24,000 nucleotides of DNA from Dellaglioa kimchii (GTDB lineage: Bacteria > Bacillota > Bacilli > Lactobacillales > Lactobacillaceae). Every line of letters begins with the position of its first letter. Within the stretch, counting starts at the first letter, position 1. Under the pieces are notes generated by a model that worked only from the letters and a program-made list of their open reading frames with translations, ran no database searches and had not been told where the DNA came from. The DNA lies in the NCBI RefSeq assembly GCF_046115505.1, contig NZ_CP170737.1, forward strand, positions 15,908 to 39,907, written 5' to 3'. This document shows positions 1 through 22,610 of this stretch, piece by piece. Position numbers and translations under genes: made by a program.

Positions 1-562
1 GGATTGATTCAACAGCTGTCTGGGAAAAGAATCAAGATTCAGGATTTAGATGATTTATTGCTTTACAGCGAATAATCGGACACGGAAAAGTGGCGTATTA
101 CGAAGCGAGTGACCAGGGAGCTAAAAGTGTATTCATTGTTTGGTTTCCATGGAGCTTAGCCGGAATCTTGTTCAGCATCACCTTGACTAGAATGACGCGA
201 AAAATTGAAGAAATGGAACAAATGGTACCTACTACCATCCGACTTTTTTATACGAGTCATTGTGGAGTTTGTTGGGCTTTGTCCTCATCGTCACTATACG
301 GAACCGAAAACAGATTTTGCGTCAAGAAGAAGTCGCTTTGAGTTACGTTTTGTGGTACTCAGTGGGTCGGTTCTTCATTGAAGGTATGCGAACGAACAGT
401 TTATGGATTGGCGAGTGGATCCGCGTTTCGCAAGCCTTGTCTCTGGCCCTGTTTATTGGCGCGATTGTAGTATGGTTTATACGCAGACAAGATTATCCAC
501 CAATTTCTTATTATTCTGATGGCAATAAGGGGCAGAAAAAGACTATTAAGATGGTGAATTGA
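1..562 (+). pseudogene. lgt: prolipoprotein diacylglyceryl transferase (Lgt) 3' portion, decayed, running off the 5' window edge
   Basis: The frame of 209-562 reads NGTYYHPTFLYESLWSLLGF...LSYVLWYSVGRFFIEGMRTNSLW, the conserved C-terminal Lgt signature. Upstream Lgt-like pieces (IIGHGK..EA, LSRNLVQHHL, IEEMEQM) are scattered over three frames with stops (e.g. TGA 206-208), which implies at least two frameshifts. Confidence 0.6.
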
Positions 563-586
563 GCAAAAAGATAAAAAGAAGTGCCG

Positions 587-631
587 AACTTGATATGCGT
601 CAATTTTCGTTTGCTAAAAGTGAGCTATATT
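587..631 (+). promoter_or_regulatory. candidate promoter with an FNR/FLP-type box (TTGATATGCGTCAA, 590-603) and a -10-like TATATT (626-631)
   Basis: The box matches TTGAT-N4-ATCAA at 9/10 positions. A 19-nt block AACTTGATATGCGTCAATT is repeated at 1052-1070 (18/19 identical). Box start to -10 start is 36 bp, the same as at the second site. It lies upstream of the HMA gene. Confidence 0.5.
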
Positions 632-708
632 ACAGTTGTAAAGAGGAAAAGGCAGTGTTCATTAATCTGCTGCCGATAAAATAAAAACACATAAAGGAGA
701 TAGGAATT

Positions 709-942
709 ATGGAAAAAGCTATATTGCAATTAGAAACGTTGTCTTGTCCAAGTTGTATGCAAAAAATTGAAGGTGCCGTGAAATCAGTTAACGGTGTTGA
801 TAAAGACAGCATTAAAGTATTATTCAACTCCAGCAAAGTCAAAGTCGATTTTGATTCAGCTGTCACTTCGATTGAAGAGATTCAAAAAGCTATCGAAAAC
901 GTAGGCTATCCGGTCCTTAAAGCAAAAGTCAAGGCCGCTTAA
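709..942 (+). CDS. heavy-metal-associated (HMA) domain protein, CopZ-like metallochaperone, 77 aa
   Basis: The N-terminal metal-binding loop is LETLSCPSCMQKIEGAV (CxxC), the size fits a ferredoxin-like fold, an SD AAGGAG lies upstream, and the gene sits directly upstream of a P1B ATPase. Confidence 0.85.
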   Translation: MEKAILQLETLSCPSCMQKIEGAVKSVNGVDKDSIKVLFNSSKVKVDFDSAVTSIEEIQKAIENVGYPVLKAKVKAA

Positions 943-1051
943 CAGATTAAATGAACTAGGCAATTCTGGAAGGAAAGCTATTTTTCCAGGATTGCTTTTT
1001 TTGTTGCAATCCGATTCGAGGTGCTTAGAAACGATAAAAGAGAACTTTCTA

Positions 1052-1096
1052 AACTTGATATCCGTCAATTAATTACTTAGGCAATTATCTTATACT
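1052..1096 (+). promoter_or_regulatory. candidate promoter with a second FNR/FLP-type box (TTGATATCCGTCAA, 1055-1068) and a -10-like TATACT (1091-1096)
   Basis: It has the same 19-nt block as 587-605 with one G/C difference, and the same 36-bp spacing from box to -10. It lies directly upstream of the ATPase gene. Confidence 0.5.
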
Positions 1097-1139
1097 TTGT
1101 TTATCAATAAAAGAGAAATTAAATTTGGAGGGAAAAAGC

Positions 1140-3002
1140 ATGCAACAATATATATTAAGCAAAAAAAATGTTATCACCGTCATCAGTGGATTGTTAATCG
1201 CACTCGGTTTCTTCAGTCACTTTGTTTTAGAAAACGTAGGACTTTCAGAGTGGTCTTTGATCATCGCCTCTGTCTTTGGGATTATGCCAATTGCCATTCA
1301 AGCGTTTCAAGCAATGAAAGTCAAAGTCATCAGTATTGATGTCTTAGTTAGTATTGCAGCGATTGGTGCGCTTTTTATTCAAAATTATGAAGAATCGGCT
1401 ATTGTCACGTTCTTATTCTTATTCGGACACTACTTGGAACATCGAACATTGAACCAAACGCGATCTGCTATCAAAGAATTGACTGAAATGGCACCCGAAA
1501 GCGCCTTGAAACAAATGGATAATGGCGAATTTGAAGAAGTAGAAGTGGATGATGTAGATGAAGGGGATATCTTGCTCGTTAAAACGGGTGCGAAAGTTCC
1601 AGTAGATGGTACAGTTCTTACGGGTGAAGGGCATATCAATGAAGCTAGCATTACAGGTGAAGCTGTTCCGGTCAACAAGCTAGCTGATGCAGAAGTTTTT
1701 GCAGGAACCATTTTAGAAAACGGAACGATTCAAATCAGAGCTGACCGAGTTGGTGAGGACACCACATTTGGAAAAATTGTTGAACTCGTGGAAGAAGCAC
1801 AAGATTCTAAATCCGAAGCGGAACGGTTCATTGATCGCTTTTCTAAATACTACACACCAGCTGTCTTGGTCCTGGCAATTGTTGTATGGGCGTTCAGTCA
1901 AAATATTGAGTTAGCAATCACCATCTTGGTTCTAGGTTGCCCAGGCGCATTAGTTATCGGAGTGCCTGTCTCAAACGTTGCCGGTATTGGGAATGGTGCT
2001 CGTAACGGTGTTCTTTTAAAAGGGAGTGAAGTCATTCAAGACTTCAGCAATGTGGATACAATTGTATTTGATAAGACAGGTACTTTAACTGTCGGAAACC
2101 CAACCGTTGCAGCGACTGAACTGTATGAAAAAGATTCTGCTGAAACGCTTGGCTATCTGGCCAGTGTGGAACGGGAATCAGATCATCCATTAGCAAAAGC
2201 GGTCTTAAATCAAATTGGAGAAACAAACTTTTATCCTGTTGAAGAAACTGAAGTCGTGAAAGGCGGCGGAATCGTTTCAAGTGTAGCTGGACATAGAGTG
2301 GCTGTCGGGAATGTGGCCTTGATGGAAAAAGAAAATGTCACTCTCAGCAAAAAAGTGCAAAAAGATGTCAAACGGTTTGAACAACAAGGGAACTCTCTCG
2401 TTTTGACAGCGGTCGACGGTGAATTAAAAGTACTGATGGGCATTCGCGACCAAGTCCGTCCGGGTGTGAAAGCTAATTTGCAGGAATTAAAAGACCTGGG
2501 CGTAAAAAATCTAGTCGTTCTTTCAGGAGATAACCAAGGAACCGTTGATGTGGTCGCAGGCGAACTTGGTTTGACCGAAGCTCACGGCCACATGTTGCCG
2601 GAAGACAAATCGGCTTATATCGGAAAACTCCAACAACGTGGTCAAATTGTAGCCTTTGTTGGAGATGGCGTTAACGATAGTCCGTCCTTAGCTTTAGCAG
2701 ACATTGGCATCGCAATGGGAAGCGGAACGGACGTAGCGATCGAAACATCCGATGTCGTTTTAATGAACTCGAACTTCAGCAACTTGCCTCACGCATTAGG
2801 AATAGTAAAAGCTACCGCAAATAATATGAAACAAAATATCGCGATTTCAATTGGAGTAGTGTTGGTCTTGTTGACCAGCGTCTTCTTCAGCGAATGGATG
2901 AATATGTCTATCGGAATGTTGGTTCATGAAGGTAGTATCCTGGTGGTAATTTTCAATGCCATGAGATTAATGAAGTATAAGTTGAAAGGTCGAAAAGAAT
3001 AA
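1140..3002 (+). CDS. heavy-metal translocating P1B-type ATPase, 620 aa, no N-terminal metal-binding domain, CPG in place of the CPC/SPC motif
   Basis: Motifs present are ITGEAVP (actuator), FDKTGTLT (phosphorylation site), GDGVNDSPSL (hinge) and HEGSILVVIFNAMRL (last TM, as in Zn/Co-type pumps). The TM motif is LVLGCPGALVIGVP. The ORF opens at TTG 1125, but ATG 1140 is preceded by GGAGGG (1127-1132) at 7-nt spacing. Confidence 0.85.
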   Translation: MQQYILSKKNVITVISGLLIALGFFSHFVLENVGLSEWSLIIASVFGIMPIAIQAFQAMKVKVISIDVLVSIAAIGALFIQNYEESAIVTFLFLFGHYLEHRTLNQTRSAIKELTEMAPESALKQMDNGEFEEVEVDDVDEGDILLVKTGAKVPVDGTVLTGEGHINEASITGEAVPVNKLADAEVFAGTILENGTIQIRADRVGEDTTFGKIVELVEEAQDSKSEAERFIDRFSKYYTPAVLVLAIVVWAFSQNIELAITILVLGCPGALVIGVPVSNVAGIGNGARNGVLLKGSEVIQDFSNVDTIVFDKTGTLTVGNPTVAATELYEKDSAETLGYLASVERESDHPLAKAVLNQIGETNFYPVEETEVVKGGGIVSSVAGHRVAVGNVALMEKENVTLSKKVQKDVKRFEQQGNSLVLTAVDGELKVLMGIRDQVRPGVKANLQELKDLGVKNLVVLSGDNQGTVDVVAGELGLTEAHGHMLPEDKSAYIGKLQQRGQIVAFVGDGVNDSPSLALADIGIAMGSGTDVAIETSDVVLMNSNFSNLPHALGIVKATANNMKQNIAISIGVVLVLLTSVFFSEWMNMSIGMLVHEGSILVVIFNAMRLMKYKLKGRKE

Positions 3003-3096
3003 AAAGAAGTATCAGCACCTGCAGAGACAGTAAAAATATCTTAAGAATAAACTAGAAGAGGCTGGGACAATAGTCCATCCTTGAAATGACAAAAGC

Positions 3097-3138
3097 GGAA
3101 ACTCCCAGATTTAAAATTCTGGGAGTTTCCACTTTTTT
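3097..3138 (+). terminator. rho-independent terminator
   Basis: A perfect 13-bp stem GGAAACTCCCAGA / TCTGGGAGTTTCC (3097-3109 / 3118-3130) has an 8-nt loop and is followed by T6. Confidence 0.75.
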
Positions 3139-3617
3139 GAGTTCTTGAAAAAAAATAAGAGTATAGAGTATGCTCTTTATAAAATTAATTTTCGTGTGAA
3201 TGATTAAAAAATCTAATAATAAAATTTAAATTCCTATTAAGTTTTAACACATGAAATTACATAATTCATCATATTGGCTATATCGTGTTTACGATATTAA
3301 TAAGGAAGCAAAATTAGAGAAGTATCATGGCAATCTAGAACAATATTTTAGTTTTGAACCAACTGATTATCTTGCTTTGAAGAAAGATAATTAGAACGTA
3401 CAGGGCCCATTTTTATACTTTAATCTGGTAAATTTCTTATTCATGGCAGTAACTACTACGGTATATTTAATGTTTAAGTACATAAATATTTTTTATAATT
3501 TTGACTTATAATTCACTTGAAGGATATTTAATCTTTAGGATTGCCAAAAAATAACGTACTGAGATTATCTCAGCAAATGTTCATATAAATAACTAGAAAA
3601 TCGACAAATAAATAGAT

Positions 3618-3664: not shown

Positions 3665-4084
3665 ATGTCTGCATTAAATGAAATTATTGAAAAGTTACGT
3701 AGTGCTGGTTTTAAGGCTACGCCGCAACGAAAATCAATTATTCAATATTTAATAGATTCTGATACGCATCCAAGCGCTCAACAAATTTCTGATGATTTGC
3801 ATGCAAATTTGACTACAGTGTACAACACGCTAGCCATCTTAGAATCCGAAAATTTTGTTATCACAATTGAAAATGAGCAAAGTGGAGAGAAATCGTATGA
3901 TTTTTTCGATATACCACACTATCATTTAGTTTGTGTTCATTGTGGCAAGATTGAAGATAAATCAGATATTGATTTTGCGCCTTTATGGCAAAAGGTTCAA
4001 AATCATTCAACTTTTAAACCTAAGCAGATACATCTTGAATTTACGGGTGTATGTGCGCAGTGTCAGTTGAAAGGACTGCAATAA
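3665..4084 (+). CDS. Fur-family metalloregulator (Fur/PerR/Zur type), 139 aa
   Basis: The N-terminal winged helix reads ATPQRKSIIQYLIDSDTHPSAQQISDDL..VYNTLAILE. The structural Zn site is formed by paired CxxC motifs (CVHCGKIED ... CAQC). An SD AAAGGGG lies upstream. Confidence 0.85.
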   Translation: MSALNEIIEKLRSAGFKATPQRKSIIQYLIDSDTHPSAQQISDDLHANLTTVYNTLAILESENFVITIENEQSGEKSYDFFDIPHYHLVCVHCGKIEDKSDIDFAPLWQKVQNHSTFKPKQIHLEFTGVCAQCQLKGLQ

Positions 4085-4092
4085 ATATAGAT

Positions 4093-5037
4093 ATGACAAT
4101 ACAAATTAATCAAGCGCAAGACGTTTGGAAAGATGTAGGGCGGAGTGTTGACTTTATCGTCCTCAAGCTAAAGCGGGAAAATTTGGAACAAGACCAAGAA
4201 CAAATTGCTGACTTTTCTGATCGCTCACAAGCTATTCTTCGCTCGATGCAAATTAGAGCTGATAATGCTGATTTACGAATGAGTATAGGGTTTAGTTATG
4301 CGGCCTGGACCTATTTATTTCCCAATGCTAATGTGCCGAGTGAACTAGAATCATTTAAAGGATTAAATGGACCAGAGTACGCGATGCCTGCAACAGACGG
4401 CGATGTATTTATTCACGTACGAGCTAAAGAAGAGGCAGTTGTTTATGAAACTGTTTCCCAATTAATGCAATTTTTAAGTCCAATTGCCGAAGTTATTGAT
4501 GAAACAAAAGGATTTCGTTATTTTGAAGGGCGTGCCATTATTGGTTTCATCGATGGTACGGAAGCACCGAGTGCAGTAGACGCAGCTGAATATGCACTAA
4601 TTGGTGAAGAAGATTCTGAATTTGAAAATGGCTCGTATGCTTTTGCTCAAAAGTGGATTCATGATATGAATTTTTGGAAAAGTTTATCAACCGATACACA
4701 AGAAAAAGCAGTTGGAAGGCAGAAATTTACGGATTTAGAGTTAGATGACGACGATAAATTTGCAAATGCTCATAATGTGGCTTCAAAACTTGAAATTGAT
4801 GAAAAAGAGCAGAAGATTGTTCGTATGAACGTTCCTTTTTCTGATTTGAACACGAAACAAGTGGGTACCTACTTTATTGGTTATGCACGCCATTGGGAAG
4901 TAACTAAGGGTATGTTAAATCAGATGTTAGAAAAATCAGATTACTTGCTAACCTTCTCTCAAATTGTTAGCGGTCAACTCTTTTTTATTCCGTCTCGTCC
5001 AATGTTAGATAATATTGCCAGCGGCGAATTGTTCTAA
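4093..5037 (+). CDS. Dyp-type (dye-decolorizing) haem peroxidase family protein, 314 aa
   Basis: Family motifs are GDVFIHVRAKEE and IIGFIDGTEAPS (the GxxDGTENP-type motif). The start was moved to ATG 4093 (MTIQINQAQDVWKD) because the tracked start at 4051 overlaps the Fur stop. Neither start has a good SD, so the start is uncertain. Confidence 0.8.
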   Translation: MTIQINQAQDVWKDVGRSVDFIVLKLKRENLEQDQEQIADFSDRSQAILRSMQIRADNADLRMSIGFSYAAWTYLFPNANVPSELESFKGLNGPEYAMPATDGDVFIHVRAKEEAVVYETVSQLMQFLSPIAEVIDETKGFRYFEGRAIIGFIDGTEAPSAVDAAEYALIGEEDSEFENGSYAFAQKWIHDMNFWKSLSTDTQEKAVGRQKFTDLELDDDDKFANAHNVASKLEIDEKEQKIVRMNVPFSDLNTKQVGTYFIGYARHWEVTKGMLNQMLEKSDYLLTFSQIVSGQLFFIPSRPMLDNIASGELF

Positions 5038-5058
5038 AATAATAGAGGAGAGTGGCTG

Positions 5059-6346
5059 ATGACATTAATACGACTTGTAAGTGTGCGCTTAATCTTGTGG
5101 TTTTTTATCTTAATTTTATTACCGTTGCCGTTCATTGTTCTGTTACTAACTGAGTTATCGATGCAATTTAGTTCTACTTTGTTTGGTATTATTGCTGGTT
5201 TGGTAGGCTACATTTGGATGTTACTAAGCATGTACTTGAGTACACGGCCACATTTGGTTAGATCGCTTAATTGGATTGCCAGAAGTATATATGATGCATG
5301 GGCTAGTGGCGTTAGTTGCAATTTTATCAGCTTGGATTCACAAAATGTTAGTGCACTCTGGTGGAATGATTTCATTAACAGGTGATGTTGGTTTATATAT
5401 TTTTTCTGGTGTTTTAGCTTACTCACTGGTGATGATGGCTGGATGGATAACGCGAAAAATAGTATTTTTACAAGCGATGAAACAATACTTTAGTAGATTT
5501 ATAAATCATGAATGGAGTGTTTGGTTGCATCGTTTGAATGTGGTAGGTGTTGTTGTTATATTTTTTCATGTTCAACTAATTGGTTATATCAGTCGATTGA
5601 ATGGCTTTATGGATTTATTTGATGGATTTTCGTTTATTGTAATCGGATACTACTTTTTTTATAAATGGATACAGCCACATTTAGATATAAGTGCGCAACT
5701 AATCGGTCGAACGGAAATTGGTGATAACATTCAAGAGTTAACAGTGCAATTGCCACCAAAATATCGATGGCACGCAGGTGACTGGTTATTTATTCGTTTT
5801 CCACACTATAAAGAGTTACGTGAGGCTCATCCATTTTCTATTGTGAACTTGCCAGATGAAACAGGTAGATTGAAGTTAGCAATTCGAGGTGACGGTGATT
5901 TTACTAGATACTTAAAAACATTATCGCCAGAAATAGAAGGAATTCATGTGAAATTAACAAGGCCATTTGGACAGTATCATCAATTTTTGAAGCAACATCA
6001 TGAAGATCAGCCATTGATTATTGTTGCTGGTGGAATTGGCATTACACCGTTTATATCTATTGCTCAAATGGCAGTGCAAAGACAACAACCAGTGACGTTT
6101 CTTTACTCAACTAAACACGAAAAGGATGCTATTTATTTAGATGAATTGACGAAGTTTAATCAAAGCGATATTTATTTCAAACATCAAGTAGGGCGGTTTT
6201 CTGATACACAAATTGTGGACATGATGCAAAAAAATGGTATCTATTTGCTGGCTGGTCCACATGCCATGACCAAATATTGGCGAAATTTTTTGAAAAATAG
6301 AGGCGTTGCGGATAGCAGTATTTATTTTGAACCCTTTGAGTGGTAA
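5059..6346 (+). pseudogene. NOX/FRE-type ferric-reductase-domain flavocytochrome (6-TM bis-haem domain fused to an FNR-like FAD/NAD(P)H domain), split by a frameshift near 5248-5252
   Basis: ORFs 5059-5385 and 5276-6346 join as ..YLSTRP|IWLDRLIGLPEVYMMHG.. if one nt is removed. The span is 1288 nt, one more than a multiple of 3. H-x13-H (HGLVALVAILSAWIH) and H-x12-H (HRLNVVGVVVIFFH) haem ligand pairs are present, together with HPFS (FAD) and GGIGITP (NAD(P)H) motifs. An SD GAGGAG precedes ATG 5059. Confidence 0.75.
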
Positions 6347-9933: not shown

Positions 9934-10419
9934 CTACAAATAATAATTCAGTAAGATACCAACGCCATAAGCAACAATTGCAGCGACGTACCCGACAGAA
10001 AGTGTGCGTAGAATTTCTGTTCTTACTTTCTGCTCTGACAGGTTGGCCTTCACCCAGCCTAGCAACGCCAAAGAGACACCGACGATGACAAAGGCGATTG
10101 GAAAGGCGATGTCTTTGTCGTGAATGAGCGCATTTGTAATTAAGTAGGCACCTAGTGGAATTAAACCGAAGACGTTAAACGAAATGAATGTCGCGATACC
10201 AGCTGCCAATGCTTTACTTTTTGATTGATTGTTATCCGATGTTGCTGACAGGTAGGCACCGGCCCCCATTGAAAAGCCATCGGCTAATAAGTTTGAGAAT
10301 CCCAAAATGATGATAACGATGTTTGAAACGTTACCACCGACCGATCCAGCAACGACTGCGAACGTCGTGATAATGCCATCTAAGCCACCGTAGACGATGG
10401 CTGAAACGTGTTTTTTCAT
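9934..10419 (-). CDS. VIT1/CCC1-family (Fe/Mn) transporter-like membrane protein, short form, 161 aa
   Basis: The N-terminal signature is AIVYGGLDGIITTFAVVAG, followed by LADGFSMGAGAYLS and several TM segments. There is no ferritin-like N-domain. Confidence 0.8.
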   Translation of the reverse strand: MKKHVSAIVYGGLDGIITTFAVVAGSVGGNVSNIVIIILGFSNLLADGFSMGAGAYLSATSDNNQSKSKALAAGIATFISFNVFGLIPLGAYLITNALIHDKDIAFPIAFVIVGVSLALLGWVKANLSEQKVRTEILRTLSVGYVAAIVAYGVGILLNYYL

Positions 10420-10532: not shown

Positions 10533-11040
10533 ACCCGGATTATTCATGCACTAAATTTTTAACCACAGCTAAATCAGTAAAATACGATAAAACACCTTGA
10601 AACTGCCAGTACCTTGGCACAGTTTCAGGGTATTTTTTCGATTGAGCGTTTTTTGAGAAAAATAGGAACACTAAAGCCAGCCAGATTTTGCTATTTTTTT
10701 GAAAATCTACTTCGTTGTTTTATTGCCACAAAGCATTTAGTCGTTCCCAAGCTCGCCAGAACAGACCATCGAATTGTTCTTGGATGCGGCTATCTAACGT
10801 CAAAATCACCTTGCGGGCGTGCTTAGTGACACACGTCCACCGATTTTTAACAAACGGTCTCGAAAGGTATTGATTGTCCACGATTGTTGCTGGTCGTCCA
10901 ACGCAATACTCTTCATCAACCGCATCAAGTTTGATGCAATTACTGAGATCCACATGCGCGCTTGCGGTAAACACGGACGATGTCTTTTTGTGGAAGACTT
11001 AGGTTAGTGACGATGAACTGTCTACCGCCATGTTCATCAT
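10533..11040 (-). mobile_element. 3' remnant of an IS1380-family element: decayed transposase C-terminus plus terminal repeat copy C (ACCCGGATTATTCATG, 10533-10548)
   Basis: The minus-strand pieces GGRQFIVTNLSLPQKDIVRVYRKRA, HVDLSNCIKLD, ARMWISVIASNLMRLMKSIAL..TFRDRLLKIGGRV and TKHARKVILTLDSRIQEQFDGLFWRAWERLNALWQ* follow the order of ISEcp1-like transposase C-termini, but they are spread over three frames (at least 3 frameshifts). The element would end with CC, as described for IS1380-family ends. Confidence 0.55.
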
Positions 11041-11076
11041 TTAAAACGATATCCTTATTTTTAAGTATAAATCGAC

Positions 11077-11769
11077 TTAACTTGATACAAATAATAATTC
11101 ATCTAAATCAAATATCTCAACACATTTTTGGGTATGCCGTTTAATTAGACCTCTCTCTTCCAATGATGAGAACTTACGGCTTATTGTTTCTGGAGTTGTC
11201 CCCAGGTAAGTAGCCAAATCTTTTTTTGACATGGGTAAAGTCACATAAGTATGGTTTTTTTCATCTTCAACATTTTCTGATAGAAAATCAATAATTCGAG
11301 CTTCAACAGGTTCAGTACTGACTTGCACAGTTTGTTTTTCTGATAACTGTAGCCGTTTTGTAATATCCGATAATATTCGTCGCATGATTTCTGGATAGAG
11401 ATCTAAATATTGATCTAAATTCTTTTTATGAATCCTACAAATACTTGTTTCCGATATTGCTTCAGCATAATTCGAATGATAACTTTCAGTCTGTAAAATA
11501 GCAACTTCCCCCATAAAATCACCAGGATGTAGGATGCGTATAGTTTGCTCACGACCAGACTCACTTAGGCTATAAATACGTACACGTCCATTGTTTATGA
11601 TATATAATGTGTCATCTTTATCACCAAACCTAAATAATAGCTCATTCTTTACGTATTGTACTTCATTCGCTGATTGAGCAATTAGACGCATTTGTTCATC
11701 ATTGAGATGATTGAAAATCGGCACTAAACGTATACAATCTACATGACTATGATGATTATGGTTTGCCAT
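11077..11769 (-). CDS. flp: FNR-like protein (FLP), Crp/Fnr-family regulator, 230 aa
   Basis: It has a cNMP-binding-like beta-roll (RIYSLSESGREQTIRILHPGDFMGE). The C-terminal HTH recognition helix is TPETISRKF (the E--SR motif of FNR). The N-terminus reads MANHNHHSHVDCIRLVPIFNHL. Cys12 and Cys111 follow the two-Cys pattern described for Lactobacillus casei FLP. Confidence 0.85.
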   Translation of the reverse strand: MANHNHHSHVDCIRLVPIFNHLNDEQMRLIAQSANEVQYVKNELLFRFGDKDDTLYIINNGRVRIYSLSESGREQTIRILHPGDFMGEVAILQTESYHSNYAEAISETSICRIHKKNLDQYLDLYPEIMRRILSDITKRLQLSEKQTVQVSTEPVEARIIDFLSENVEDEKNHTYVTLPMSKKDLATYLGTTPETISRKFSSLEERGLIKRHTQKCVEIFDLDELLFVSS

Positions 11770-11964
11770 ACCGTTTTCCTCCTAATTAATCGTTATCTAT
11801 AAATTGTCCATTTTTTAAGTATAAGATCATCTTTTTTCGTTGTATTTTATGTGGTTAATCTCACACCAGCTTGCCCCAGAGGATAGCGTTCTGCATGACA
11901 TGCTCTCACTGAAGGTGATCATACAATGATAAATTGCCATGTCACGGCGTGACCCATTGGTGCA

Positions 11965-12507
11965 ATGTATCATGTACCAAAACAAAAAACCACTAGGGTA
12001 TACAATATCGATACAGATTATGTAAATCAATTACATAGCATAGATAAAAAAGTAGAATACCACCATGGAGAACATGATAAACCGTATTTGGGTATCATAT
12101 TAGAAATTAACGGTACAAATTATTTTGTTCCTCTTTCATCACCAAAGCCGAAGCATAATCGAATGTCTGAAAATATCACTTTTAAAAAGATAGAAAAAGA
12201 TGGACACTTATTTGCTGTTTTAAATATTAACAATATGATCCCTGTTCCACTGAATTTATGTAAAGAAATTGACATTGATAATATTTCAGATACTTACTAC
12301 AAACACTTATTAAATCAGGAATACTTTATTTGCAAGCGAAAGAAAAGAGACATTATGAAGTCAGCCGGCATAGTTCATAAATGTATTTGTGAGGAGCCTG
12401 AAAGCCATGAAAAAATGTTGAGCCGAGAAAATAAGATTTATGAAGAAAGCAATTTTAATATTCTTTTTCGGTTGATTCTGATTCGAGTGATTATGGTCTT
12501 TATCTGA
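11965..12507 (+). CDS. ToxN/AbiQ-family type III toxin-like endoribonuclease; ends may not be native
   Basis: PYLGIILEINGTNYFVPLSSPKPKHNRM and VLNINNMIPVP match the AbiQ/ToxN core pattern (GI-LEI-G--Y-aPL-SPK-kH; MIP). There is no SD before ATG 11965. About 10 extra N-terminal residues are present. The last ~15-30 codons are antisense to a separate minus-strand gene start. Confidence 0.65.
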   Translation: MYHVPKQKTTRVYNIDTDYVNQLHSIDKKVEYHHGEHDKPYLGIILEINGTNYFVPLSSPKPKHNRMSENITFKKIEKDGHLFAVLNINNMIPVPLNLCKEIDIDNISDTYYKHLLNQEYFICKRKKRDIMKSAGIVHKCICEEPESHEKMLSRENKIYEESNFNILFRLILIRVIMVFI

Positions 12508-12557: not shown

Positions 12558-12872
12558 TTATTTTTCTAATTCATTAACATGAGTTAAGACTCGTTCGAGA
12601 ATACTAAAAACATGAAGGTCATCTAAACTGTAAAGCATACTTTTTCCTTCTCTTCTTGATTTCACTAAGCGTGCGTCTTTCAACGTTTTTAATTGATGAG
12701 AAATAGCGGACTGTTCCATGTCCAGAGAAATAGCGATATTTCCAACACTACACTCTTTTTTCTGTAAAAGAAAGAGAACCGACAATCGTGTAGGATCACT
12801 AATCACCTTAAATAGTTTGCTTATTGACAGAATAGATCCTTTATCGATTGGAGAAGTTGTTTTTATATCCAT
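12558..12872 (-). CDS. ArsR/SmtB-family metalloregulator with an alpha5 (Zn/Co/Ni-type) site, 104 aa from ATG 12872
   Basis: The HTH reads DPTRLSVLFLLQKKECSVGNIAISLDMEQSAISHQLKTLKDARLV. The C-terminal DLH-x10-H-x2-E (DDLHVFSILERVLTHVNE) fits the alpha5 DxHx10Hx2E site of CzrA/SmtB-type sensors. There is no CVC alpha3 motif. The tracked ORF starts at TTG 12935, so the start is uncertain. Confidence 0.85.
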   Translation of the reverse strand: MDIKTTSPIDKGSILSISKLFKVISDPTRLSVLFLLQKKECSVGNIAISLDMEQSAISHQLKTLKDARLVKSRREGKSMLYSLDDLHVFSILERVLTHVNELEK

Positions 12873-12979
12873 AGTGTTTTTATTCCTTTCATATGACCTT
12901 TCGTTCATATCTATATTACCATATGAGCGAAACAATGCTAATCTTTTGTTTATAAAAGAGAAGTGGCGTTCTCTTTATC

Positions 12980-13042: not shown

Positions 13043-13170
13043 AAAGTGGATTCATTACGATTTACTTTTGGAATAAACGAAAGGAGTCAGAAATAGCAGA
13101 AATTTATGTGATTCAAGAAGTAAATGATGGAAAACAAAGGAATTATAAATTATATAGGGAGGCAATAGAA

Positions 13171-15102
13171 GTGAAAACTATCCAAGAACAACAGTCTCAA
13201 GAAAAGCATAATCATAATCACAACCACGATCACGACCATGATCATGGGAAAATGCCAGTCGTTTTGTACTTTGTTGGTTTAGCATTAGCAGTGATTGCTC
13301 TATTTTTGAATGAAGATTATCAGTTGGTACAAAATGTTTTGTTCTCAATCGCTACAATCAGTGCCGGGTATCACGTTATTCTTCTTGAAGGCCTTGGAGA
13401 AACAATTGAGAATTCAAAAGCACAAAAAAAGTTCATACCTAATTCTCATATTTTAATGGGATTAGCGGCAATTGGAGCTTCTTTGATGGGGAATTTTTGG
13501 GAAGGAACATTATTGATTCTTATTTTTTCTGGCGCACATTTTTTGGAAGATTATGCAGAAGGAAGAAGCAAACGAGAAATAACGAAATTACTCGAAATGA
13601 ATCCAACGACTGCCCGGTTAATCCTGCCTGATGGTAGTACAAAAAATGTGGATGTCAGTGAATTAAAAGTGGGAGATCAACTTCAAGTGTTGAATGGCGA
13701 TCAAGTACCTATTGATGGCGTCATTTTGTCTGGATCTACATCCATTGATGAGTCGTCTATTAATGGAGAAAGTATCCCGAAAGAGAAATCCAAAGGAGAT
13801 GGCGTCTTCGGGAGTACAATCAATGGAACAGGTACCTTCACGATGAAAGTCACCAAAGAAAACAAAGATACAGTATTTTCAAAAATTTTACAATTAGTGA
13901 ATCAGAACCAAGATAACCAAACAAAAGCTGCGAGTATTATCCAAAAATTTGAACCGAAATATGTCACAGTTGTTTTAATTGCCATTCCTCTATTCATGTT
14001 ATTGGCTCCTTTTCTACTTGATTGGACATGGTCACAAAGTGTCTATAGAGGATTGGTCCTTTTAGTTGCAGCTTCACCGTGTGCTTTAGCAGCAGCTACT
14101 GTCTCGGCAACGCTATCGACGACTTCTAATTTAGCCAAAAAAGGAGTCCTTTCAAAAGGTAGTTCTTACCTGTCTCAATTAGCCGATATTAAAGCAATTG
14201 CATTTGATAAGACGGGCACCTTGACCAAAGGAAAACCTGAAGTAACCAATTATTATTTTGCTGATTCCGTGAACGAAGAAAACATGATTGATATCGTAGT
14301 AGCTCTTGAAAAAGAATCCAATCACCCCTTAGCAGATGCTATTCTAAGAAAGTTTGAGCAAAAAAACAAACTAACTATTGAAGTAGAAAACCAAATTGGT
14401 AAAGGATTGACGGGAGATTACAAAGGGAGAAATTATCGTATAGGAAAACCGACTTCGTTTGATGATGTTTCAGATGAATATAGTCGTTTAAATAATGAAT
14501 GGGCATCAGAAGGTAAGACAGTCGTATACGTAGCAGTAGATGAAGAGGTTATAGGCCTTATTGCCCTTATGGACGTTCCGAGTGAATATGCTAAAGAAAC
14601 CATTGAATATTTTAGGAAACAAGGTATACACACCACATTAATTACTGGTGACTCAGAAATGACGGGAAAAGCGGTTGCTAAACAATTAGGAATAGATGAA
14701 GTGATTACGAATGTCATGCCGGAAGACAAATCCAGAATTATAGACGAACAAAAAGAAAAATACGGCGTGACCGCCATGGTTGGAGACGGTGTAAATGATG
14801 CTCCTGCTCTTGTTAATGCAGATGTGGGAATCGCTATGGGAGATGGGACTGATGTGGCAGTAGAGGTATCTGATTTAGTTTTAATGCAAAACAATTTATC
14901 TAAATTGGTACAATCTCATAATATTTCTTCGAAAATGAACCGTGTTATTTGGCAGAATATTATTTTTTCAATGGCCGTTGTTGCTTTTTTAATTGTCGTT
15001 AGTTTCTTAGGCTTAACGGATATTGCAATCAGTGTCATTATTCATGAAGGAAGTACTTTGGTTGTTATTTTGAATGGACTTCGATTGCTAAAGGCAGTCT
15101 AA
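13171..15102 (+). CDS. P1B-4-type (SPC motif) heavy-metal ATPase with a His-rich N-terminus, 643 aa from GTG 13171
   Basis: Motifs are the N-terminal HNHNHNHDHDHDHG, the TM motif AASPCALAAAT, FDKTGTLT, GDGVNDAPAL and HEGSTLVVILNGLRLL. The actuator loop reads SSINGESIP (NGE where TGE is usual). GTG 13171 has the SD GGGAGG 8 nt upstream. The tracked start at 13108 has no SD within range. Confidence 0.85.
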   Translation: MKTIQEQQSQEKHNHNHNHDHDHDHGKMPVVLYFVGLALAVIALFLNEDYQLVQNVLFSIATISAGYHVILLEGLGETIENSKAQKKFIPNSHILMGLAAIGASLMGNFWEGTLLILIFSGAHFLEDYAEGRSKREITKLLEMNPTTARLILPDGSTKNVDVSELKVGDQLQVLNGDQVPIDGVILSGSTSIDESSINGESIPKEKSKGDGVFGSTINGTGTFTMKVTKENKDTVFSKILQLVNQNQDNQTKAASIIQKFEPKYVTVVLIAIPLFMLLAPFLLDWTWSQSVYRGLVLLVAASPCALAAATVSATLSTTSNLAKKGVLSKGSSYLSQLADIKAIAFDKTGTLTKGKPEVTNYYFADSVNEENMIDIVVALEKESNHPLADAILRKFEQKNKLTIEVENQIGKGLTGDYKGRNYRIGKPTSFDDVSDEYSRLNNEWASEGKTVVYVAVDEEVIGLIALMDVPSEYAKETIEYFRKQGIHTTLITGDSEMTGKAVAKQLGIDEVITNVMPEDKSRIIDEQKEKYGVTAMVGDGVNDAPALVNADVGIAMGDGTDVAVEVSDLVLMQNNLSKLVQSHNISSKMNRVIWQNIIFSMAVVAFLIVVSFLGLTDIAISVIIHEGSTLVVILNGLRLLKAV

Positions 15103-18253: not shown

Positions 18254-19585
18254 TTAAATTAATGTTCTAATTTTATATGCTAAACCAGGGAAAGCCATTA
18301 CCATCTTTTCTTTCCAAACCTCTGGATCAACATCAATTGCCATAACAGGAATTAGTGAATTGATATCATCTACTGCTGTTTGGCTAATTTCAGCAGCGCC
18401 CACGAGATGATTTTGCTTGTCAAAGACTAATGATAATCGTGCGTGATCATCTGTTCCAGCATAAAAAAAGTCACCTTGAGTAATATCAATATCTTTAATT
18501 GAATAATTACTGTCTTCCTTTGCTTTATCAATACTAATTCCAGCTTGAGCGAGTTGGGGGAATGTGAACGTAACGGTTCCAATTACTGGGTACCTAAGAG
18601 GTTCAGTTGTTTTATTAGTAAGTAAGGCACTTAAGTAGTCTGCTTCAAACTGTGCCGTAGAGGTTAATGCTGGTGCGGTTTTATCAACAATATCGCCCAT
18701 TGCGTAAATGTTATTTGCTGATGTGGTCAAATATTTATCAACTTTAATTCCGCGGTTGCTGTACTCTACACCAGCATTATCAAGTTTCAATGCATTAATT
18801 TCAGGAACTCTACCACTGGCATTAATAACTTTATCAAAAGTGCCAAGGTTGCCGTTAGCTGATTGAACCTCATAGCCAGTTTGTGCTTCGGTAACAGCTG
18901 TAACATTTGTGTTAAATATAAAATTAATACCAAGTGAGTTTTTCATTTCATCAACTAACTGATGAACGTGTTGGCTGTAAAATCCCTCTAGTGGTTGGCC
19001 GGATCGGACAATAACTGTTACTTTAACCCCGGCAGCAGACAACAATGTAGCAAATTCCATACCAACGTAACCACTTCCGATAATTGCGACGTTCTTTGGA
19101 GTATCTTCGAGTTCAAAAAGGTTAGTACTAGTAAGTAGGTACTCGTGGCCAGGAATGTTAAGAGGATGCGGCTTTTTTCCGGTTGCGATTACAAAATTAT
19201 CAGCAGTGATTTTTTTATTATTAACTTCAATGGTATGTTGATCAACAAATGATGCTTCACCCTTGATGGTAGTCGCACCCAGGCCTTCATACATACTTTG
19301 CATATTATTTAGGAATGACGCCATAGCCTTATTCTTTTGCTGAATAAGTTCTTTCCAGTCAAGCTTAGCTGGTTGAGTAATTCCCTTACCTTGCAAACGC
19401 ATTGAAGTTAAGGTTGCTCGTGCTGCTCCTTCTAAGAAAATCTTGGGTTCGCAGCCTTCGTTAGGGCAAATTCCGCCAAACCGATTCTTTTCAACAACCG
19501 CGATTTTCTTTCCGCTATTCTGCATTCCCAATAGGAAACGATAAACTGATGGCCCACTGCCAATAACAACGTAGTCAAACTTCAT
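18254..19585 (-). CDS. class I pyridine-nucleotide-disulfide oxidoreductase, glutathione-reductase-like, 443 aa
   Basis: The FAD fold is DYVVIGSGPS. The redox-active CxxxxC is GGICPNEGCEPK. The NAD(P)H fold is VAIIGSGYVGMEF. The C-terminal region reads VMAFPGLAYKI where GR and LipDH have the HP---E dyad, so the His-Glu pair appears to be missing. Confidence 0.8.
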   Translation of the reverse strand: MKFDYVVIGSGPSVYRFLLGMQNSGKKIAVVEKNRFGGICPNEGCEPKIFLEGAARATLTSMRLQGKGITQPAKLDWKELIQQKNKAMASFLNNMQSMYEGLGATTIKGEASFVDQHTIEVNNKKITADNFVIATGKKPHPLNIPGHEYLLTSTNLFELEDTPKNVAIIGSGYVGMEFATLLSAAGVKVTVIVRSGQPLEGFYSQHVHQLVDEMKNSLGINFIFNTNVTAVTEAQTGYEVQSANGNLGTFDKVINASGRVPEINALKLDNAGVEYSNRGIKVDKYLTTSANNIYAMGDIVDKTAPALTSTAQFEADYLSALLTNKTTEPLRYPVIGTVTFTFPQLAQAGISIDKAKEDSNYSIKDIDITQGDFFYAGTDDHARLSLVFDKQNHLVGAAEISQTAVDDINSLIPVMAIDVDPEVWKEKMVMAFPGLAYKIRTLI

Positions 19586-19602
19586 TTATAGCTTCCCTCC
19601 AT

Positions 19603-19734
19603 TTATTTTGTTTTCTTCTTCTTATCCTCAGTTTGCTTTTGATGTTCAGAGATATTACAACCGTCTGGCCCACATACAGCAGCATCATTATTATCGCCAA
19701 ATATTGTATTAAATTGTGGCTTATCTTCGGTCAT
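19603..19734 (-). CDS. small 43-aa Cys-pair protein absent from the ORF track (MTEDKPQFNTIFGDNNDAAVCGPDGCNISEHQKQTEDKKKKTK)
   Basis: A strong SD TAGGAGGAA lies 6 nt before ATG 19734. The gene fills the 161-nt gap between the DsbA-like and reductase genes on the same strand. It carries a CGPDGC motif and a Lys-rich tail. Confidence 0.5.
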   Translation of the reverse strand: MTEDKPQFNTIFGDNNDAAVCGPDGCNISEHQKQTEDKKKKTK

Positions 19735-19746
19735 CGTAAATTCCTC

Positions 19747-20394
19747 CTAATTTTCTTCTTCTTGAACTCGCTTTAAGGCTTTAACAAAAACTTCATATGG
19801 TTGGGCACCACTAATTGCATACTTATTATTGATTACAAAAAAAGGTGCAGCATGAATACCGGATTGTTGAGCCTCTGCCTCGTCATTGACCACAGCTTGA
19901 TGATATTGGTTAGAATTAAGCACTTTTTCTACTTCGTCTTTAGCAAGCCCAGCTTCCATTGCCGCATTTAATAGCACATCATGGTCAGAAATCGATTGAC
20001 CATCACTAAAGTAAACTTGGTAGAAGCGTCTAATTACTCGTTCAGTCAAATCAGGATCATTTTTAGCTTCTGCGAATTTAATAATCCGGTGCGCATCCAT
20101 AGTATTTGTAGGTACTACACTGTCAAGATCCATTGGTAGACCATCGTTATGCGCCATTTGTTCGATGTAAGCCATTTGCTTTTTGGCCTGTGGCTCCATT
20201 GCCTTATTTCCCTGAGTGAAGTGATTAATGTATCCTTCATCGGTTTCCTTTGGTGTTGCAGGGTTAAGCTCGAATGATTTGAACTCTAATTCAGTTGTGT
20301 CATAAATACCAATTTCCTTCATTGCTCGTTTCATTCGGTTAGAACCGATATAACAAAAGGGGCAAGCAATGTCTGACCAATATTTGATTTCCAT
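19747..20394 (-). CDS. DsbA-family thiol oxidoreductase, FrnE-like subgroup (cytoplasmic), 215 aa
   Basis: The N-terminal active site is WSDIACPFCYIG. The C-terminal region GIHAAPFFVINNKYAISGAQPYEVF is typical of FrnE/DsbA-like proteins. No signal peptide is present. Confidence 0.85.
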   Translation of the reverse strand: MEIKYWSDIACPFCYIGSNRMKRAMKEIGIYDTTELEFKSFELNPATPKETDEGYINHFTQGNKAMEPQAKKQMAYIEQMAHNDGLPMDLDSVVPTNTMDAHRIIKFAEAKNDPDLTERVIRRFYQVYFSDGQSISDHDVLLNAAMEAGLAKDEVEKVLNSNQYHQAVVNDEAEAQQSGIHAAPFFVINNKYAISGAQPYEVFVKALKRVQEEEN

Positions 20395-20412
20395 AAAGTA
20401 ATTTTCCTCTCT

Positions 20413-21357
20413 TTAATCTTTAACCGTTTGCCGATGCTTTATGGCTTCGAAATATTCAAAGGCGTTTTGCCCAGCAATACCACCATCGCCAACCGCAGTG
20501 GTAATTTGCCGCAGTTGCTTTTGCCGGACATCACCAATTGCATAGATTCCAGGAATTGTTGTTTCCATTTGATCGTTAGTTATAATCCAACCAGCTTGAT
20601 CGGTAATATTTAAATTATTGAAAATTTGGCTATTTGGAAAGTTACCGACATAAACGAAAACTCCATCAGTGTCTAGAGTTGTATCATCACCGACCTGATT
20701 GTTATGAATTTTTACTCCAGTAACATGATTTTCATCACCTAAAATCTCTGTCACACTAGTATTCCAAGTGAAATCTATCTTATCGTTATCAAAAGCACGA
20801 TTTTGTAATACCTTTTGTGCCCGTAACTGATCGCGACGATGAATGACATTAACTCCATCAGTGACATTAGCTAAGTACAATCCTTCAGAAATTGCTGAAT
20901 CACCACCGCCAACTACAGTAACATTCTTTCCTTTAAAGAAAGAACCATCACATACTGCACAGTAAGAAACCCCTTTTCCGGAGAACTTTTCTTCACCTGG
21001 TACACCTAATTTTCGATTATTAGATCCTGTTGCAATAATTACTGCGCTTGCTACTAACTCGTCACTATCGGTTTGAATATGCTTCATTTGTTGATCATCA
21101 ACGGTAACGTTTTGGACATCACCATATACAAAATTTACTCCGGCCTTAACGGTTCCTTGATACATTTTCTCACCAAGTTCAGGACCCTTAATTGTTGTAA
21201 AACCAGGGTAGTTTTCAATGTCATCGGTGTTGTTCATTTGTCCACCATAAATACCGCGATCAAGCATTGCTACATTTAAATTAGCTCGTGCTGCATATAA
21301 GGCAGCGGTCATTCCACCAGGACCGGCCCCAATCACTACTACATCATATTTCCTCAT
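20413..21357 (-). CDS. trxB: thioredoxin-disulfide reductase, 314 aa
   Basis: It has VVVIGAGPGGMTAALYAAR (FAD), the redox centre SYCAVCDGSFF (CAVC), VVGGGDSAISEG (NADPH) and GIYAIGDV. Confidence 0.9.
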   Translation of the reverse strand: MRKYDVVVIGAGPGGMTAALYAARANLNVAMLDRGIYGGQMNNTDDIENYPGFTTIKGPELGEKMYQGTVKAGVNFVYGDVQNVTVDDQQMKHIQTDSDELVASAVIIATGSNNRKLGVPGEEKFSGKGVSYCAVCDGSFFKGKNVTVVGGGDSAISEGLYLANVTDGVNVIHRRDQLRAQKVLQNRAFDNDKIDFTWNTSVTEILGDENHVTGVKIHNNQVGDDTTLDTDGVFVYVGNFPNSQIFNNLNITDQAGWIITNDQMETTIPGIYAIGDVRQKQLRQITTAVGDGGIAGQNAFEYFEAIKHRQTVKD

Positions 21358-21380
21358 TAAATTTCAATCCAATCTACTTA

Positions 21381-21576
21381 TTAGTCGTCACGTAACGCTA
21401 ATCCCTTATCCAATGAACGATTAACAATGACTTCTTGTGCATCAATAATGGTTAACCACTATATAATCTAAATGGTCTTGGTCTTTATGGGTTTCAGTTT
21501 TCTTATTAAGGAGTCGGACATAACTTTCAGTTGCTAACGTCCCCATACCGCCAAGAATAGTTAAAAAACTCTTCAT
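21381..21576 (-). pseudogene. aspartate/glutamate-racemase-family remnant (N-terminal 44 codons plus a short out-of-frame C-terminal piece)
   Basis: It reads MKSFLTILGGMGTLATESYVRLLNKKTETHKDQDHLDYIVVNHY*, with the racemase motif GGMG--AT, then an internal deletion. Its ATG overlaps the preceding stop (TAATG). Confidence 0.55.
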
Positions 21577-21898
21577 TAGTTAATAGTGTTGGTAATGAAG
21601 TTTTCGACTTCTTCTTTAGTCTTCCGATCTTTATTGACAAGCCTTCCGATTTCTTGCCCATCTCTAAAAATAACGAAGCTTGGAATACCAAAGATATTTA
21701 GTTCTTGAGCCAATTCGGTATTCTCATCACGATCGACACTGATGAAAGTGTAATCTTTGAATTCTTGTTCAATTTCTGGTAGATGAGGCTTGATAAAGCT
21801 ACAATCAGGGCACCAAGAAGCTATAAAAATTAAAATATATTTTCCATTCTTCAGTTTTTTATCAAATTCTTTTTATTCATTACTGATAGTTGTTCCAT
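21576..21898 (-). pseudogene. thioredoxin-family gene (WCPDC active site) with a frameshift in a homopolymer
   Basis: The SD GAGGGGAG and ATG 21898 give MEQLSVMNKK. After a run of 5 A (plus strand T5, 21870-21874) the frame must shift to read EFDKKLKNGKYILIFIASWCPDCSFIKPHLPEIEQEF...GIPSFVIFRDGQEIGRL...*. The span is 323 nt, one less than a multiple of 3. The ORF track misses it because the long frame has no start codon. Confidence 0.65.
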
Positions 21899-21918
21899 TT
21901 AGCTTCTCCCCTCTTAAC

Positions 21919-22233
21919 CTAATTAGTATATTGAGCAAGAACGGTTTTAAGTTGGTCCTTACTGTGGAGGCCAACCAGCTTATCAACTACTTGGCCATCT
22001 TTTTTGATAATTAAGGTTGGAATAGACATAATTCCAAATGCCATTGGTGTTTTTTGATTTGCATCTACGTCCATTTTAGTGATTTTGACTTTATCGCCAA
22101 TTTCTTTATCAAGTTGTTCAATAATCGGTCCTTGCATTCGACATGGAGGACACCAAGTAGCCCAAAAATCAGTTAATGTAACACCGGTACTAGTTTCTTT
22201 CACAAAGTCTTTGTCAGTTAAGTTCTTAACCAT
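21919..22233 (-). CDS. trxA: thioredoxin, 104 aa, WCPPC active site
   Basis: It reads VTLTDFWATWCPPCRMQGPIIEQL...MSIPTLIIKKDGQVVDKLVG, with canonical Trx length and cis-Pro context, but CPPC instead of CGPC. An SD AAAGGAG lies upstream. Confidence 0.85.
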   Translation of the reverse strand: MVKNLTDKDFVKETSTGVTLTDFWATWCPPCRMQGPIIEQLDKEIGDKVKITKMDVDANQKTPMAFGIMSIPTLIIKKDGQVVDKLVGLHSKDQLKTVLAQYTN

Positions 22234-22246
22234 AAGAGTCGCTCCT

Positions 22247-22528
22247 TTATAGGTAATATTTAATTAAAGTTGTTAATTGTGATTGATCAATAAAACGGGT
22301 AATTTTTTCAACGATTTTTCCATCACGCAGCAAAATAGTACTGGGTGCGGAATAAACATTGTATTTTTTTGCTAGTTCTGGGTGAGCATCTGAATTCACT
22401 ACCCGAACGTTTAAATATGAATTAAAGTCATGGCTAATCTTATTTATTATTGGTCGCTGCGTATAACACTGGGCGCACCAATTATTCTCAAAATTAATTA
22501 AGGTTAGCGTTTTATCAATAGTAGACAA
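22247..22528 (-). CDS. thioredoxin-like protein, 93 aa, WCAQC motif
   Basis: It reads LINFENNWCAQCYTQRPIINKI...YSAPSTILLRDGKIVEKI, a Trx fold pattern. The start is TTG with a weak SD (AAAGG). Confidence 0.65.
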   Translation of the reverse strand: MSTIDKTLTLINFENNWCAQCYTQRPIINKISHDFNSYLNVRVVNSDAHPELAKKYNVYSAPSTILLRDGKIVEKITRFIDQSQLTTLIKYYL

Positions 22529-22546
22529 GTTATGTCACTGCCTTTC

Positions 22547-22574
22547 AATTATTCAATTGTTTACTTGAATAGTT
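22547..22574. promoter_or_regulatory. 10-8-10 inverted repeat AATTATTCAA-ttgtttac-TTGAATAGTT in the leader of the thioredoxin operon
   Basis: The arms match at 9/10. The half-site TTGAATAGTT recurs in the palindrome upstream of the ArsR-rhodanese gene. Confidence 0.3.
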
Positions 22575-22610
22575 CAATAATATCATATACTTTTTGTAAG
22601 TCAATATAAA

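Follow-up and report, generated by a model that had tools for sequence, protein, structure and literature searches.

Candidate FLP-type activator boxes before a metallochaperone gene and a CPG-type ATPase gene of Dellaglioa kimchii, and the regulators that may read them

The window analysed here is a stretch of plasmid DNA, 24,000 nucleotides (nt) long, from Dellaglioa kimchii (NCBI RefSeq assembly GCF_046115505.1, contig NZ_CP170737.1, positions 15,908 to 39,907 of the forward strand), and our subject is a pair of palindromic boxes near its beginning, the first upstream of the gene for a metallochaperone with an HMA domain and the second upstream of the gene for a P1B-type heavy-metal ATPase. 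These boxes are of the type bound by FNR and by the FNR-like proteins of the FLP type, they stand in the same position with respect to a -10 hexamer, and they probably mediate the activation of the two genes by a Crp/Fnr regulator of the FLP type. All coordinates are those of the window, unless they are assigned to another locus. The boxes, their promoters and their target genes are arranged as follows.

587 to 605, plus strand: FLP box 1, upstream of the HMA gene, AACTTGATATGCGTCAATT, with the core TTGATATGCGTCAA at 590 to 603
626 to 631, plus strand: -10 hexamer TATATT of the HMA promoter, 22 nt past box 1, without a -35 element
709 to 942, plus strand: gene for an HMA-domain metallochaperone of 77 amino acids with the metal site LSCPSC; NCBIfam matches of the CopZ/MerP type, all under the equivalog cut-offs
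958 to 997, plus strand: intrinsic terminator after the HMA gene, a stem of 17 pairs followed by a T-run
1052 to 1070, plus strand: FLP box 2, upstream of the ATPase gene, AACTTGATATCCGTCAATT, with the core TTGATATCCGTCAA at 1055 to 1068
1091 to 1096, plus strand: -10 hexamer TATACT of the ATPase promoter, 22 nt past box 2, without a -35 element
1140 to 3002, plus strand: gene for a P1B-type heavy-metal ATPase of 620 amino acids, with its ATG at 1140 (TIGR01525, 558 bits against a cut-off of 346)
3097 to 3130, plus strand: intrinsic terminator after the ATPase gene, by terminator prediction

The 19-nt block AACTTGATAT[G/C]CGTCAATT is present twice in the window, at 587 to 605 and at 1052 to 1070, and the two copies are identical at 18/19 positions, in agreement with what a sequence-only reading of this DNA had claimed. 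That reading had also counted 36 base pairs (bp) from the first T of TTGAT (590 and 1055) to the -10 hexamer, which is exact in both copies and corresponds to a gap of 22 nt between box and hexamer, and it had compared the cores, TTGAT-N4-GTCAA, with the FNR consensus TTGAT-N4-ATCAA, to which both conform at 9/10 positions. Its description of the boxes as FNR/FLP-type palindromes in a class II-like placement holds; they lie 22 nt from the -10, and there is no -35. If transcription starts 7 nt past the hexamer, the predicted centre of the box is at -41.5.

The recurrence of these elements in the window is far above expectation. The 19-mer with up to three mismatches matches twice, against 0.01 matches expected, and none of 100 shuffles reached two; the composite TTGAY-N4-RTCAA-N22-TANNNT likewise matches twice against 0.01 expected. 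The bare pattern TTGAT-N5-TCAA is by itself not significant, with three matches against 0.86 expected. Its third match, TTGATATTACTCAA at 18476 to 18489 (minus strand), had been missed by the sequence-only reading, according to which the window held no other TTGAT-N4-xTCAA box; the slip is harmless, as this match lies within the coding sequence 18254 to 19585, has no -10 at the correct spacing and is probably due to chance. A relaxed scan of the window that required a -10 at 21 to 23 nt returned, elsewhere, only weak sites with two mismatches, mostly inside open reading frames, and an Rfam scan of the window matched nothing.

Two simpler accounts of these promoters were discarded. Canonical sigma-70 promoters for the HMA and ATPase genes were rejected after a consensus scan of the plus strand, which found no -35/-10 pair upstream of either gene (709 and 1140). 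Chance or local duplication as the origin of the boxes was also rejected, because the same elements recur in diverged cassettes too; the two promoters of the window are alike only in the -10 and in the box with the nucleotides next to it.

Since a terminator follows the HMA gene (958 to 997), and another the ATPase gene (3097 to 3130), the two targets form separate transcription units. The ATPase carries the transmembrane motifs CPG and HEGS, has no N-terminal HMA domain, and its start codon agrees with that of annotated homologues. The CPG motif, distinct from CPC, CPH and SPC, is present in every box-linked ATPase homologue (45 to 100% identity), and in the examples inspected for it HEGS follows further downstream. 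The scores of the ATPase stay below the cut-offs of the substrate subgroups (ZntA equivalog, 396 versus 1240; CopA, 394 versus 1316), and the nearest solved structures, CopA, ZntA and a P1B-4 ATPase, have similar scores. A literature search on P1B ATPases with the CPG motif found nothing. Directly downstream of the ATPase gene, the region 3665 to 6346 (plus strand) encodes a PerR-like regulator of the Fur family, a DyP-type peroxidase and a membrane FAD/NAD-binding oxidoreductase, a neighbourhood that recurs in an L. suionicum plasmid (L005).

The same promoter architecture was found well outside the window. When an alignment of the two regulator types described below served as the seed of a genome scan, 78 loci were obtained, with regulators 52 to 100% identical, from Leuconostoc, Weissella, Enterococcus, Tetragenococcus, Aerococcus, Staphylococcus and many Bacillaceae. 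The comparative set of boxes comprised 84 loci plus the window (1.07 Mb), searched with the pattern TTGA[TC]-N4-[GA]TCAA, so that the half-sites are constant by design, while the N4 spacer and the flanks were free to vary. Out of 193 matches to the pattern, 179 lie at most 300 bp upstream of a homologue of the ATPase, HMA, dps or flp gene. They correspond to 113 distinct promoter contexts (HMA, 50; ATPase, 45; dps, 9; flp, 9), and in 110 of these a TAnnnT hexamer begins exactly 22 nt past the box. The hexamers found there include TATACT (62 promoters), TATAAT (18), TACACT (8), TAAAAT (8) and TATATT (7). Position 5 of the box is T in 104 contexts, position 10 is occupied by G (70) or A (43), a C precedes the box in 93/113, and TT is preferred after it. 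The columns at the -35 position are ATTTTT-like, with nothing resembling a -35 element, and there is no TG extension of the -10.

The boxes co-occur with genes for FLP-type Crp/Fnr proteins in Lactobacillales, Bacillaceae, Staphylococcus and one actinobacterial plasmid. In the latter, plasmid A of Microbacterium sp. No. 7 (L086, 6786 to 9995), the genes for a CPG ATPase and for an HMA protein with FSCPSC are grouped with a divergently transcribed Crp/Fnr gene, and the intergenic site reads ATGATctatGTCAA, 22 nt, TATCGT; the regulator has both Cys residues and the helix TTPETLSRR. A gene for a ZIP-family transporter adjoins this module. Moreover, two Heyndrickxia loci (L066, 5098 to 5639, and L067) have an extra box, TTGATgcagATCAA, followed after 22 nt by TAGAAT, before a flavodoxin-like open reading frame about 1.9 kb from flp, and this gene may be an additional member of the regulon in Bacillaceae.

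Two genes for potential regulators are represented in the window, the first by its very end and the second in full.

1 to 75, plus strand: 3' end of flp-1, the last 24 codons and the stop codon of a gene for an FLP-type Crp/Fnr protein, cut by the window start; translation GLIQQLSGKRIKIQDLDDLLLYSE before the stop
73 to 562, plus strand: remnants of a gene for a hypothetical membrane protein (73 to 223) and of the 3' part of lgt (204 to 562), from blastn against L001 and L003; no box
11077 to 11769, minus strand: flp-2, an intact gene for an FLP-type Crp/Fnr paralogue of 230 amino acids, 52% identical to flp-1 homologues
11801 to 11802, no strand assigned: breakpoint at which homology of the pLEUM1 type ends

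Positions 1 to 83 correspond to 4001 to 4083 of C. inhibens pWNCR64 (L001), the end of a Crp/Fnr coding sequence, with 98.8% identity. When positions 1 to 3200 were used as a megablast query, 237 plasmids were matched, 173 of them from Enterococcus, 26 from Listeria and 24 from Ligilactobacillus, with fewer from Carnobacterium, Leuconostoc and others, and a single match spanned at least 80% of the query in 214/237. The annotated order of the cassette in those plasmids is dps, flp, a hypothetical gene, lgt, HMA and ATPase, with flp contiguous with the targets; in pWNCR64 the palindrome, the 22-nt gap and TATACT occur before dps, flp, HMA and the ATPase gene alike. Because the 3' end of flp-1 occupies positions 1 to 75 and the cassette is contiguous in 214 plasmids, it follows that the targets have a cognate regulator gene directly upstream.

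Between flp-1 and box 1 the cassette has been reduced. The blastn segments have overlapping junctions (73 to 223 corresponds to L001 4473 to 4623, and 204 to 1070 to L001 5122 to 5988), and we interpret them as two deletions with microhomology junctions, by which the hypothetical gene and lgt were left as predicted non-functional remnants. The two deletions are also present in L002, and they account for the loss of the hypothetical gene and lgt in an L. curvatus plasmid. A comparable event appears to have shaped box 2. In fact, pWNCR64 has an additional, degenerate copy of the box ahead of the ATPase box, and window positions 204 to 1070 and 1046 to 3264 map to L001 5122 to 5988 and 6087 to 8306, respectively, overlapping within box 2; the ATPase box of the window resembles a hybrid between two tandem boxes, as though recombination had removed the intervening segment. 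Before the ATPase gene, a tandem pair of boxes with a distance of about 120 bp is found in some plasmids (L001 5964 to 5988 and 6087 to 6111), whereas the window (1046 to 1070) and others have a single hybrid, and the N4 spacer of the ATPase box varies among plasmids (ATCC, GTCA, AGCC).

The sequence-only reading had described the product of 11077 to 11769 as a Crp/Fnr protein with Cys12, Cys111 and ETISR, and we recovered all these features in an intact open reading frame of 230 codons, with the helix TTPETISRKF. The helix-turn-helix segment, YLGTTPETISRKF, is identical in flp-2 and in the flp-1 homologues. The flp-2 product is 100% identical to Leuconostoc proteins, and in Leuconostoc plasmids such as pLEUM1 its gene is the last of an ATPase-HMA-dps-flp operon. 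This second cassette differs in gene order and shows 63 to 68% protein identity, yet it has the same box and spacing: pLEUM1 reads TTGATGGACGTCAA, 22 nt, TACACT before the ATPase gene and TTGATCTATATCAA, 22 nt, TATAAT before the HMA gene. In the window, the homology covers 10956 to 11801 (L004 5977 to 6822, 99.6%) and there is none beyond; the dps, HMA and ATPase genes of cassette 2 and its native promoter are gone past 11801, and the window scans found no FLP box upstream of flp-2. The comparison of the two cassettes identifies flp-2, in our interpretation, as the orphan remnant of a second cassette and not as the displaced partner of the genes at 709 to 3002.

On these grounds, the proposal that flp-2 governs both promoters and was once a single unit with them, later parted by rearrangement, appears improbable, although it has some merit. 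The gene is intact, its helix-turn-helix segment is that of the cassette regulators, the boxes of its native operon follow the same consensus, and a promoter-like site upstream of it, at 11945 to 11918 (minus strand), could drive its expression. However, a different and cognate FLP gene ends at position 75 and is contiguous with the targets in the 214 plasmids, flp-2 is only 52% identical to it and belongs to a separate type of cassette with its own ATPase, HMA and dps genes, and the breakpoint at 11801 took away these partners of flp-2, not the genes at 709 to 3002. The split of one unit, put forward in the sequence-only reading, is therefore not upheld. Its remark on a matching FLP regulator 10 kb away survives in part: the recognition helix is the same and flp-2 is a possible second regulator, but the likelier activator gene is flp-1, directly upstream. 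Cross-regulation of the boxes by flp-2 is plausible, because the recognition helix is shared and the native operon of flp-2 uses the same site consensus.

Two further genes were noticed around flp-2. A gene for a transporter of the VIT1/CCC1 family (iron/manganese) lies beside it at 9934 to 10419 (minus strand), as in pLEUM1, and its upstream region yielded no FLP box. The gene at 11965 to 12507 (plus strand), right at the breakpoint at 11801, matches Pfam PF13958 (E = 2e-40) and codes for a toxin of the ToxN type, the toxin component of a type III toxin-antitoxin system. Tandem repeats resembling ToxI were not detected beside it, in the upstream region 11802 to 11964.

Close homologues of the regulators carry Pfam PF00027, PF13545 and PF00325, that is, a cNMP-binding-like domain and a C-terminal helix-turn-helix of the Crp type. 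The regulators themselves clearly have the Crp/Fnr fold. Their best NCBIfam matches, FtrB, FixK, CRP and Fnr, are all below the equivalog cut-offs, so that they are none of those named regulators, and no close solved structure was found for them. The sequence TTPETISRKF, with its E--SR recognition helix, is invariant in both regulator types. Cys111 is invariant in 64/64 sequences, and Cys12 is present in every full-length N terminus. In an alignment with E. coli FNR, which we take to be indicative only, Cys111 is paired with the cluster ligand Cys122, and ETISR with the same residues in TVETISRLL of FNR. Furthermore, a His-rich tail (one to seven His) stands just before the N-terminal Cys in 114/114 near-full-length relatives among the matches listed (the best 120); in flp-2 it is MANHNHHSHVDC, encoded by 11734 to 11769. 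Members from Bacillaceae have two or three N-terminal Cys residues, for example, QCCHHQHGHAEC, and approach a four-Cys set like that of FNR, and the Microbacterium regulator is without the His tail and keeps both Cys residues. L. casei FLP and L. lactis FlpA and FlpB are absent among the matches listed (the best 120 homologues).

Taken together, these observations lead us to consider it probable that the two boxes function in FLP-dependent class II activation of the HMA and ATPase genes. A dimeric activator of the FLP type would read the half-sites through its E--SR recognition helix and, bound at about -41.5, would recruit RNA polymerase, replacing the contact with a -35 element. The primary regulator would most likely be flp-1, and flp-2 may also act on the boxes. 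Because flp carries the same box in complete cassettes, positive autoregulation of flp-1 can be expected. The metal chaperone, the exporter and, in complete cassettes, Dps would be induced together, and the cassette would represent a portable defence against metal and peroxide stress.

Several points weigh against this interpretation. Only the last 75 nt of flp-1 are in the window, and its intactness in this replicon is assumed from its relatives. The placement at -41.5 derives from the position of the -10 alone. The 78 loci of the genome scan were picked through the regulator gene, so that the co-occurrence of box and regulator is partly built in, whereas the positional specificity and the spacing are not. 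In L. casei, a flp deletion mutant had no growth defect under aeration or with 2 mM H2O2 (PMC7162690). Finally, the plasmid pls2 of L. paraplantarum (L088; 40.6 kb) has a perfect box and -10 before a CPG ATPase gene and before an HMA-dps unit (at about 23845 and 29728) despite having no FLP-family gene anywhere on it; a regulator acting in trans, a different one or none must be assumed there. Boxes before homologous ATPases in genomes devoid of an FLP homologue had been named in the sequence-only reading as evidence that would count against it. Our look at ATPase-anchored plasmids brought up one case, pls2, which concerns the plasmid only and whose bearing depends on the chromosome.

The case of pls2 also suggests that a Crp/Fnr protein of the host chromosome, such as a chromosomal Flp or an ArcR-like protein, could be the main reader of the boxes, the flp genes of the plasmids serving otherwise, and TTGAT-N4-ATCAA is indeed a generic site of the FNR class. 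We hold this to be quite improbable, since flp is tightly linked to box-bearing genes at nearly all other loci, which include two cassette architectures and an actinobacterial plasmid, and since the flp genes carry the box themselves. Least credible is the box as an operator, with FLP or a different member of the Crp/Fnr family sitting on the -35 region of both promoters as a repressor until stress releases it: the family does include repressors, and a protein bound where the box lies, at roughly -48 to -35, could exclude RNA polymerase, but there is neither a -35 element nor an extended -10 to occlude, the rigid 22-nt spacing (110/113 promoters) is a hallmark of class II activation that steric repression does not need, and the box before flp itself fits positive autoregulation.

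Given activation by FLP, thiol oxidation and metal are about equally probable as the trigger, which is the weakest link in the proposed mechanism. It is possible to hypothesize that FLP is switched on through Cys12 and Cys111, by a disulfide formed under oxidative stress in the manner reported for FLP of L. casei, by metal binding that also involves the His-rich tail, or by both. The conservation of the Cys pair across phyla, Dps in the regulon and the Heyndrickxia box before a flavodoxin-like gene suggest a thiol switch, and oxidised Flp has been reported to form an intramolecular disulfide and then bind promoters (PMC7162690). Metal sensing is a serious alternative, favoured by the His-rich tails, by the nature of the targets, a metal chaperone and a pump, and by the link between FlpAB and metal homeostasis (PMC4829306). 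A metal-dependent redox site would reconcile the two signals. More specifically, the FLP family could consist not of simple thiol switches but of Crp/Fnr-type metalloregulators or metal-dependent peroxide sensors, built on the His-rich or Cys/His-rich tail and the two Cys residues, that control a dedicated and so far uncharacterised transport system of CPG ATPase and SCPSC chaperone(s) with or without Dps, a system conserved between Actinomycetota and Bacillota and found on hundreds of plasmids of Enterococcus, Listeria and lactic acid bacteria; we advance this tentatively, as possible rather than probable. If true, the Crp/Fnr superfamily would gain a branch that senses metals, and the regulon of FLP, unclear for so long, would be defined. 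A literature search on metal sensors of the Crp/Fnr type found nothing.

Other genes of the window also relate to stress. A gene for an ArsR/SmtB metalloregulator (12558 to 12935, minus strand) is divergent from that of a P1B ATPase (13108 to 15102, plus strand) with an SPC transmembrane motif and a His-rich N terminus, HNHNHNHDHDHDH; this ATPase is 34% identical to the CPG pump and without an FLP box, and the pair represents a second, unrelated metal module. The region 18254 to 23298 (minus strand) groups genes of thiol-redox function and encodes a pyridine nucleotide-disulfide oxidoreductase, a DsbA-like protein, a thioredoxin reductase-like protein, a thioredoxin and a regulator in which ArsR is fused to rhodanese. 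Much of the window looks like an island of genes for oxidative and metal stress.

The promoter architecture translates into a concrete prediction of a regulon, consisting of dps, flp, the HMA chaperone(s) and the CPG-type P1B ATPase. The module has so far received little study, although it is present on more than 230 sequenced plasmids, including large clinical plasmids of E. faecium and plasmids of Listeria, and its homologues on Listeria plasmids have been described as being without characterised relatives (PMC9484302). Two short promoters and two regulator paralogues offer a simple handle on the signal of FLP, be it oxidation, metal or both, and on the metal of the ATPase.

Compared to known systems, the class II promoters of E. 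coli FNR, with TTGAT-N4-ATCAA centred at -41.5, present the same palindrome, the 22 nt to the -10, the absence of a -35 and the E--SR helix. However, the predicted regulon here is a small metal/Dps module instead of anaerobic respiration, and a four-Cys [4Fe-4S] oxygen sensor is unlikely in the regulators of the window, because their N terminus has a single Cys in place of three. The PerR regulon of Bacillus subtilis and of streptococci, which responds to peroxide and metal stress, comprises the Dps-type proteins MrgA and Dpr and the P1B4 ATPases PfeT and PmtA. It is a functional analogue, in which Dps and metal export by a P1B ATPase are under common control; different from the predicted Crp/Fnr activator of the cassettes, PerR is a repressor of the Fur family, and the cassettes feature a CPG and not an SPC motif, with one or more separate HMA chaperones. 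FlpS and the other activators of the Flp/ArcR type, which serve arginine deiminase operons (streptococci, PMC5039431), are also FNR-like activators of Lactobacillales that act on palindromes of the Crp/Fnr type, but they control arcABC rather than genes for metal handling or Dps, and none of the loci examined here showed linkage to arc genes.

A close likeness is to L. casei FLP and to FlpA and FlpB of L. lactis, a likeness by description only. FLP proteins were first described in the 1990s. The L. casei and L. lactis proteins likewise belong to Gram-positive bacteria, have the Crp/Fnr fold and an FNR-type recognition helix, and are also without the N-terminal Cys cluster of FNR, with one N-terminal and one central Cys. 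They have been connected both with oxidative stress and with the homeostasis of metals (PMC4829306, PMC7162690), and, judging from primer coordinates, the flp gene of L. casei adjoins dpsB (PMC7162690), as flp adjoins dps in the cassettes considered here. The target genes of FLP were still to be clarified according to a 2019 paper (PMC7162690), and the papers on the L. lactis flp operons (1998 to 2000) may anticipate part of the regulon. In contrast to those systems, four to five identically built promoters occur per cassette, and the module is plasmid-borne and mobile. The system is therefore of a known kind, an FNR-type class II architecture served by regulators of the FLP subfamily; what is new with respect to the accessible literature is the explicit regulon (dps, flp, HMA and CPG ATPase), the existence of two cassette architectures and their spread across plasmids and phyla.

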